From a virus, in the IMG/VR virus record IMGVR_UViG_3300009103_000003, positions 117,200 to 181,199 of that record: DNA of 64,000 nucleotides; one strand, written 5' to 3'. Below, piece by piece: positions 16,022 through 16,631 of the stretch; positions within the stretch are counted from its first letter, which is position 1, and the number at the start of each line of letters is the position of its first letter. Under the pieces are notes generated by a model that was not told where the DNA came from, did no database searches, and worked only from the letters and a program-made list of their open reading frames with translations. The translations under genes were made by a program, and so were the position numbers.

Positions 16022-16097
16022 TGGTGGGCCCCCTGGGATTCGAACCCAGGACCTACCGGTTATGAGCCGGGGGCTCTAACCACTGAGCTAGAGGCCC
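16022..16097 (-). tRNA. tRNA with CAT anticodon, Ile2-like (lysidine type) rather than Met
   Basis: 76-nt cloverleaf GGGCCTCTAGCTCAGTGGTTAGAGC...CTCATAA...ACCA; G1-C72 pair; body resembles bacterial tRNA-Ile2. Confidence 0.9.
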
Positions 16098-16107
16098 ATA
16101 CAAGAAT

Positions 16108-16193
16108 TGGTGGGGCTGGAGGGACTCGAACCCTCAATCCCATAGGGCGTCAGATTTTAAGTCTGATGCGTATACCAGTTCCGCCACAACCCC
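16108..16193 (-). tRNA. tRNA-Leu(TAA)
   Basis: 86 nt, long variable arm, tcaga-cttaaaa-tctga anticodon arm, CCA end. Confidence 0.95.
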
Positions 16194-16536: not shown

Positions 16537-16631
16537 TGGTAGGCCCGGTGGGATTTGAACCCACGACCTTGTGCTTATCAGACACTACACCGGGTATAAG
16601 CCGGTTGCTCTAACCACTGAGCTACGAGCCT
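16537..16631 (-). tRNA. Atypical 95-nt tRNA-Ile with two anticodon-like arms (TAT and GAT)
   Basis: aggctcg/cgggcct acceptor, D arm, accgg-cttatac-ccggt, gt, agtgt-ctgataa-gcaca, aggtc, T arm, ACCA. Confidence 0.85.

Follow-up and report, generated by a model that had tools for sequence, protein, structure and literature searches.

A phage tRNA-Ile(UAU) gene with a second, GAU-displaying arm, and its counterparts in Actinomyces genomes without TilS

The window, a stretch of 64,000 nucleotides, forms the end of a phage genome that is complete at 181,199 bp and carries direct terminal repeats. ARAGORN annotates positions 16537–16631 on the minus strand as a tRNA-Ile(tat) of 95 nt, and the Rfam model RF00005 gives this sequence a score of 64.4 bits (the gathering score is 29 bits). 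A sequence-only reading of this DNA had described a 95-nt tRNA with two tandem hairpins here; ARAGORN, Rfam and a direct reading of the sequence confirm it and place the gene on the minus strand. It had also predicted that automated tools would miss the second anticodon. This is borne out, as gene finders report the UAU anticodon only and Rfam places a 20-nt insertion in the variable region.

Read 5′ to 3′, the gene consists of a 7-bp acceptor stem, UA, a D arm (loop AGUGGUUA), A26 and a first anticodon-type arm, ACCGG-CUUAUAC-CCGGU (arm 1). On the 3′ side of arm 1 there is a GU linker, followed by a second arm, A-GUGU-CUGAUAA-GCAC-A (arm 2), AGGUC, the T arm, the acceptor 3′ strand, A73 and CCA. 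The features and the observations that bear on each are listed below.

16537–16631, minus strand: two-armed tRNA-Ile(UAU) gene, 95 nt including the encoded CCA (ARAGORN; Rfam RF00005, 64.4 bits; sequence read).
16625–16631, minus strand: acceptor stem 5′ strand, nt 1–7, pairing with 16541–16547; compensatory changes in 7/7 pairs (22 homologues).
16607–16622, minus strand: D arm, nt 10–25, with G15 at 16617; stem 100% paired, G15 covaries with C48.
16589–16605, minus strand: arm 1 (decoding), nt 27–43, 5-bp stem, loop CUUAUAC, UAU at 16596–16598; 3/5 pairs compensatory.
16587–16588, minus strand: GU linker, nt 44–45; length (1–3 nt plus the unpaired flanking base) and sequence variable in homologues.
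16570–16586, minus strand: arm 2 (GAU display), nt 46–62, A.A flank, 4-bp GUGU/GCAC stem, loop CUGAUAA; 100% paired, 2/4 pairs compensatory.
16577–16579, minus strand: GAU triplet of arm 2, loop positions 3–5.
16565–16569, minus strand: AGGUC, nt 63–67, the 5-nt variable loop 44–48, with C48 at 16565; Levitt-pair covariation with position 15.
16548–16564, minus strand: T arm, nt 68–84; 100% paired, 3/5 pairs compensatory.
16537–16547, minus strand: acceptor 3′ strand (16541–16547), A73 (16540) and CCA (16537–16539); discriminator A in 22/22 homologues.
16108–16193, minus strand: tRNA-Leu(UAA), downstream neighbour; the order Ile(tat) then Leu(taa) is found in the window, in related phages and in Actinomyces chromosomes.

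When either 19-nt unit is removed from the gene, 76 nt remain, and the earlier statement that either deletion yields a tRNA of normal length holds for both units. The gene displays a cloverleaf with 7/5 geometry, in which the 5-bp T arm has a TTC loop, and is recognized by RF00005 as a tRNA. The decoding loop CUUAUAC has U34 and C38 and does not display the bacterial tRNA-Ile set of GAU or LAU together with A37 and A38; in this gene GAU-A37-A38 is found in arm 2 only. The hairpin of arm 2 stands as first described, except that its stem is not 5 bp but 4 bp (GUGU/GCAC), flanked by an A.A mismatch. The minimum free energy fold pairs two bases of the arm-2 loop, which we treat as the usual in-silico closing of what would be an anticodon-type loop. 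A promoter and terminator scan around the gene shows nothing above background.

The phage has four tRNA genes: Arg(UCU), Met(CAU), Leu(UAA) and the two-armed Ile(UAU). AUA makes up 20.6% of the phage Ile codons (about 10.5 per thousand codons), and UUA and AGA, which match its other tRNAs, are similarly frequent. No TilS-like protein and no class-I synthetase protein is encoded in the phage genome. The neighbouring “Met”(CAU) tRNA (window positions 16022–16097, minus strand) is 89% identical to nt 8–43 of the two-armed tRNA, a segment that comprises the D and anticodon arms; its pairs 4–69 and 5–68 are C4-G69 and C5-G68. This neighbour may belong to the Ile2 (lysidine) type and not to Met, in which case the phage would have two strategies for AUA.

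The phage ribonucleotide reductase was used to determine the meaning of AUA. In an alignment with 111 homologues, the columns of its eight AUA codons hold Ile (65%, with one column invariant), and its AUU and AUC codons have the same Ile profile. The alignment thus shows, at the level of sequence comparison, that AUA means isoleucine in the phage. The nearest relatives of the reductase are found in one Actinomycetia phage and in mycobacteriophages (43%–45% identity), and an actinobacterial host is plausible.

In related phages the two-armed gene is at the same place, downstream of the reductase. A relative with 72% reductase identity (L336) has an ordinary 76-nt tRNA-Ile(UAU) with the loop CUUAUAA in the same tRNA cluster (L336:9961–10036). 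An alignment of this tRNA with the two-armed sequence shows that the two differ by a clean ~20-nt insertion after position 43 and ahead of the variable loop. The single-arm tRNA at the same locus implies that the GAU arm is not universally needed. Single-arm tRNA-Ile(UAU) genes are common in phages, where at least 105 distinct sequences were found.

Homologues of the two-armed gene were collected by scanning for its pattern in viral contigs, in metagenome contigs and in prokaryotic genomes, the latter with one per species; all scans imposed some motifs. Removal of duplicates left 22 distinct homologues, 12 from large-phage contigs (37–420 kb, with a locus GC of 42%–58%) and 10 from Actinomyces chromosomes. 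In the alignment of these 22 sequences, which are kin and therefore overstate independence in covariation and loop counts, standard pairs occupy 99.3% of the pair cells and both sides have changed in 17 of 26 pairs. Shuffled alignments reached the observed pairing and covariation values in 0 of 500 trials, and controls in which the strands were slid drop to 29%–48% paired. The helices are 97%–100% paired with compensatory changes in every one of them, arm 2 included. The sequence-only reading had judged the two arms unlikely to arise by chance, which these values bear out, and had proposed a search of homologues for stem covariation; both arms display compensatory changes.

The tertiary core shows the same constraint. 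The Levitt pair 15–48 is G15-C48 in 17 homologues and A15-U48 in five, with no mismatches. This covariation indicates that the five bases after arm 2 are the true 44–48 variable loop, which closes a canonical tRNA core. A non-pair (A.A, A.G or C.A) flanks arm 2 in 22/22 homologues, and the discriminator A is also present in 162/162 phage UAU tRNAs among the matches listed. Arms 1 and 2 and the tertiary core are under selection.

A blastn search of 50,697 isolated phage genomes gave no full-length match to the two-armed gene; in the same genomes the 3′ half alone matches ordinary tRNA-Ile(GAU) genes. A search for RNA from the A. oris locus found contigs that start inside or downstream of the two-armed gene, none of which spans it.

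Other tRNA-Ile loci were noted as well. Several giant-virus contigs (GVMAG) are among a group of loci (L010, L015, L016, L021, L032–L034) with tRNA-Ile(UAU) genes that have eukaryote-like, intron-like inserts of 25–30 nt beside the anticodon. Copies of a tRNA-Ile(GAU) 3′ half occur at least six times within ~150 kb of one Acidobacteriota MAG contig (L202, L231, L232, L252, L253) and at many soil metagenome loci as well, e.g. L086–L094. Each of these repeated 3′ halves is preceded by a conserved tactatgcaTATAGCACCATAAAAGCCC segment and is not two-armed; they resemble a repeated element, or scars left by serial integration at tRNA-Ile. Two viral contigs (L039, L055) have a tRNA-Ile(GAU)-like 3′ half after an unusual 29-nt segment, with a “cgcctgatagg” motif upstream, and may represent another non-canonical tRNA.

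The part of the extra arm that is conserved was assessed with a less restrictive scan of viral contigs, which looked for UAU tRNAs with 13–26 unconstrained bases ahead of the variable loop. Among the matches listed there are 51 distinct long-armed genes with an intact arm 1, and the motif CUGAUA is present in 16 of them and absent from 35. Perfect hairpins of 4–5 bp with a 7-nt loop are formed by 48 of the inserts, and GAU is at loop positions 3–5 in 47 of these 48 among the matches listed, a count of related sequences from motif-based scans that gives direction rather than an exact frequency. The one exception looks like a mis-registered hairpin. The other loop positions vary. Among the same listed matches, position 33 of the extra loop is A in 29 and U in 17 of the 48 hairpins, position 37 is U in 25 and A in 18, and A38 is found in 37 (the last with the same reservation as to exact frequency). 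Common extra loops in the long-armed phage genes are CAGAUUA, CUGAUAA and UAGAUUG.

A larger sister class of phage tRNA-Ile(UAU) genes (L037, L063, L448, L458, L476, L496 and others) has a 4-nt linker GUAU, the loop CAGAUUA or UAGAUUG and a GGUU variable end; in this class GAU is retained and U33 and A37 are lost. The second loop had been described as a U33-type anticodon loop of 7 nt with an isoleucine anticodon. The GAU part of this description stands (47/48 among the matches listed), and the U33 and A37 part does not, since the larger sister group has A33 and U37. Judged from the alignments, what is invariant is the GAU triplet at the anticodon position and not a decoding-competent loop. 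The variation at positions 33 and 37 suggests that the extra arm is a display of GAU rather than a second decoding anticodon, and the presence of A33 and U37 in much of the wider family means that the extra loop is no faithful mimic of an anticodon loop. An invariant GAU in a loop that is not itself invariant favours base-specific recognition of G, A and U.

The extra arm also correlates with a change in the decoding loop. Among the matches listed, 53 of the 57 long-armed phage genes (93%) have C38 in the decoding loop, versus 19 of 105 single-arm tRNA-Ile(UAU) genes (18%), figures that again show direction and not exact frequencies because the sequences are related and were found by motif. 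A38 has thus largely gone from the decoding loop of the long-armed genes, while their extra loop mostly retains it. A separate possibility was considered in which the two loops kiss: in this gene CUUAU of loop 1 is complementary to AUAAG of arm 2, and loop 2 displays the codon AUA. It was rejected: most of the wider family has GAUU, without AUA.

Bacteria normally depend on the essential enzyme TilS for the decoding of AUA. The two-armed hits in cultured and binned genomes are all in the genus Actinomyces. The carriers include Actinomyces naeslundii, viscosus, oris, johnsonii, stomatis, denticolens, timonensis, bowdenii, oricola, gaoshouyii, acetigenes and vulturis, together with several further strains. 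A search for TilS gave no match in 5/5 Actinomyces carrier genomes, and the same search matched 14/14 control genomes. In three carriers whose genomes were examined in detail, the CAU tRNAs are initiator and elongator Met only, and there is a single ordinary tRNA-Ile(GAU) beside tRNA-Ala plus the two-armed gene; no tRNA-Ile2(CAU) and no single-arm UAU tRNA is present in these three.

The association was followed in 121 sampled Actinomycetaceae genomes. The two-armed gene is found in none of the ~115 TilS-positive genomes. The five carriers in the sample, one of which was found by similarity only (its loop reads UGGUC), are all without TilS. A further genome, G099, has neither a TilS match nor a two-armed gene. 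It is probably an incomplete genome, and its state may reflect either an incomplete assembly or an intermediate state. A CAU tRNA in G099 (L324:1501–1575) shares 83% identity with the two-armed tRNA over the 5′ half of the latter, a likeness that points to an Ile2-like ancestor for the backbone of the two-armed tRNA.

AUA is in use in these bacteria. A. timonensis has 23 AUA codons in 53,600, spread over 20 of 135 long open reading frames. The presence of AUA, together with the absence of TilS and of any other UAU or Ile2 tRNA, argues that the UAU arm is the working AUA anticodon in Actinomyces. It had been suggested at the outset that UAU decodes AUA without TilS, and this has gained support: in Actinomyces the gene is confined to TilS-less genomes and is the only UAU or Ile2-type tRNA in the three examined. 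In the Actinomyces carriers the two-armed tRNA is thus the sole AUA decoder found (no TilS in five of five, no Ile2(CAU) in the three examined). That the UAU arm is a working AUA decoder without TilS is very probable, and the distribution shows that the two-armed design substitutes for TilS in Actinomyces.

In several Actinomyces genomes the two-armed gene adjoins tRNA-Leu(UAA), as it does in phages. Copies in huge phages (L012, L031, L107, L424; contigs of 201–420 kb) have the Actinomyces-type acceptor stem GCCCCCA/UGGGGGU and a C-GUGC arm 2, with a locus GC of 47%–55%. These are candidates for a transfer of the Ile(UAU)-Leu(UAA) pair between phage and Actinomyces, in either direction.

A UAU tRNA is ordinarily a poor substrate. 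E. coli IleRS prefers the LAU tRNA over the UAU tRNA ~360-fold by kcat/Km, and Mycoplasma mobile solves the charging of its UAU tRNA with one Arg in its IleRS (PMC3575796). The IleRS of Actinomyces is of type 2 (eukaryote-like): its C-terminal domain is DUF5915 and it lacks a zinc-finger domain. The TilS-positive relatives of Actinomyces have the same type. Bifidobacterium reportedly uses an ordinary UAU tRNA with this IleRS type as well (PMC3575796), which counts against a handle for IleRS as the role of the extra arm. Three IleRS domains of a carrier genome were compared with those of TilS-positive relatives, and no excess divergence was seen over that of the relatives among themselves. This suggests that it is the tRNA that has adapted and not the enzyme.

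A mechanism that would account for these observations is as follows. The elongator tRNA-Ile would read AUA through the UAU of arm 1, without the TilS/lysidine system. Arm 2 would be a selected module, inserted between the anticodon arm and the complete AGGUC loop, with the display of GAU as its task. GAU, A73 and the Ile-type core would be what IleRS reads, and would permit Ile charging of an otherwise very poor substrate. Arm 1 comes directly after A26 and arm 2 runs straight into A44, so that each is continuous with the core on one strand; because of this continuity either hairpin could stack under the D stem. Two states may thus be formed. Arm 2 would be presented to the synthetase in one; in the other, arm 1 would face the ribosome and arm 2 would stand out in the manner of a class-II variable arm. 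In class I synthetases, IleRS among them, the variable-arm side of a bound tRNA is turned to solvent, so the GAU loop could contact the anticodon-binding domain only after a rearrangement of the junction.

IleRS as the partner of the GAU loop, and the two-state geometry, are what we infer. The sequence-only reading had proposed the GAU arm as a handle for IleRS, and the invariant GAU and the retention of A38 in the extra loop are consistent with this. Taken by itself, the assignment is tentative, with a chance somewhat under even. The best explanation as a whole, that the UAU arm decodes AUA and the GAU arm is most likely read by IleRS, we regard as evenly balanced between right and wrong. It may be extended to a portable identity module: IleRS would read a decoy anticodon on arm 2 and the ribosome the UAU arm, a two-state junction would keep the two readings apart, the module would have spread in large phages, and an Actinomyces ancestor would have acquired it with tRNA-Leu(UAA), making TilS dispensable. 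This extended version is possible, and we hold it with still more reserve.

Recognition of the GAU hairpin by a factor other than IleRS is rather unlikely, yet it has some points in its favour. The hairpin might serve an enzyme that modifies U34 or A37 of the decoding loop or a factor that limits the misreading of AUG by U34, or it might merely tune folding or stability of a UAU tRNA. GAU is conserved in the extra loop and U33 and A37 are not, and the tight association of C38 in the decoding loop with the extra arm hints at an altered chemistry of that loop. Misreading of AUG is a known problem of UAU tRNAs (PMC3575796). However, no candidate enzyme gene was seen beside the tRNA in the phage, and a role in stability fails to explain why the conserved triplet is the exact cognate anticodon of IleRS.

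Removal of the hairpin as an intron, leaving a mature ordinary 76-nt tRNA-Ile (UAU or GAU), is improbable. It would agree with the length of exactly 76 nt that is left without either 19-nt unit, and true intron-like inserts do occur in other viral tRNA-Ile(UAU) genes. The insert of the two-armed gene, however, is outside the anticodon loop, no bulge-helix-bulge motif is seen when the sequence is read, and we know of no bacterial machinery for the excision of such a hairpin. Excision as an intron would also leave unexplained why GAU stays invariant at set positions of the loop, and the linker length varies freely among homologues.

Two further readings have very small probabilities, about equal to each other. 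In one, the tRNA would switch conformers and arm 2 would also read AUU and AUC on the ribosome. The loop CUGAUAA is a perfect anticodon loop in the subfamily of the window gene, and on one strand each arm joins the core directly, but the A33 and U37 of the larger sister group are unfit for a normal decoding loop, arm 2 has only 4 bp and a mismatch, and Actinomyces retains a normal tRNA-Ile(GAU). In the other, also raised by the sequence-only reading, the second loop would be a decoy or backup against anticodon nucleases or other defences that target tRNA. Phages carry tRNAs that counter tRNA-cleaving defences, and the two-armed gene is frequent in large phages. We know, however, of no anticodon nuclease specific for Ile(GAU), and a decoy leaves unexplained a chromosomal gene that tracks the loss of TilS in Actinomyces and replaces it there.

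A class-II-like UAU tRNA charged with Leu or Ser, which a long extra arm, A73 and precedents (PMC3333845, PMC7609411) might suggest, is extremely improbable, because the AUA columns hold Ile, which rules out such recoding, and the 7/5 geometry, the class-I core with G15-C48, the full AGGUC after the arm and the 7-nt GAU loop also argue against it. A neutral relic left when two tRNA-Ile genes recombined, or a chimera made in assembly as considered earlier, has just as slight a chance, even though the 5′ part resembles a CAU (Ile2-like) tRNA and the 3′ part a phage tRNA-Ile(GAU), for the arm-2 changes are compensatory, GAU is invariant, and the gene occurs in dozens of independent contigs and in cultured genomes, which dispose of a chimera.

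The decoding of AUA is a classic weak spot in the genetic code, and the known exceptions to TilS altered IleRS or the ribosome. If the proposed reading by IleRS is true, a GAU-displaying tRNA would be a third route to AUA decoding, one that the tRNA itself encodes. To our knowledge, such a tRNA would also be the first found in nature with synthetase recognition and codon reading on separate arms. It would bear on the rules of tRNA identity, on the use of phage tRNAs in hosts with different enzymes and on the design of orthogonal tRNAs, and would explain how a genus of common oral bacteria lives without TilS.

Full-text literature searches gave no description of a tRNA-Ile with two anticodon arms or with a long arm. 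The closest known system is the TilS-independent tRNA-Ile2(UAU) of Mycoplasma mobile, a type that Taniguchi et al. (2013, PMC3575796) report also for Bifidobacterium, Neorickettsia and a B. subtilis suppressor. The two-armed tRNA shares with the M. mobile type an unmodified-type UAU that reads AUA, the lack of TilS and Ile2(CAU), A73 and an Ile-type body. The M. mobile-type tRNAs, however, are ordinary 76-nt molecules without the extra hairpin of 19–20 nt, and differ in architecture from the two-armed gene. Their solution is in the enzyme (Arg865 in the M. mobile IleRS, or a eukaryote-type IleRS), whereas the Actinomyces IleRS has no special divergence.

Class II tRNAs (Leu, Ser, bacterial Tyr, Sec) show, as the two-armed tRNA does, that the ribosome tolerates a stem-loop between the anticodon and T arms. 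In these the long variable arm is an identity element for the synthetase, used as such in tRNA-Ser. Class II arms are inserted between positions 45 and 46 with a short 3′ flank, their loops are small, and it is their shape and not their sequence that is recognized; in the two-armed tRNA, by contrast, the arm precedes a complete 44–48 loop and has a 7-nt loop with an invariant GAU. Nematode nev-tRNAs and allo-tRNAs also combine a UAU anticodon with a long extra arm. Their identity is Leu or Ser, with 8/4 or 9/3 geometry in allo-tRNAs, whereas the two-armed tRNA has an Ile body, 7/5 geometry and AUA as Ile. The intron-containing tRNA-Ile(UAU) genes of eukaryotes and giant viruses resemble the two-armed gene in that a UAU gene exceeds 76 nt. 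Their introns are within or beside the anticodon loop and disrupt it; in the two-armed gene both hairpins are intact and the insert is outside the loop. In function, the two-armed gene is thus a TilS-independent tRNA-Ile(UAU), and it is distinct from class II, allo- and nev-tRNAs and probably also from intron-bearing tRNAs.
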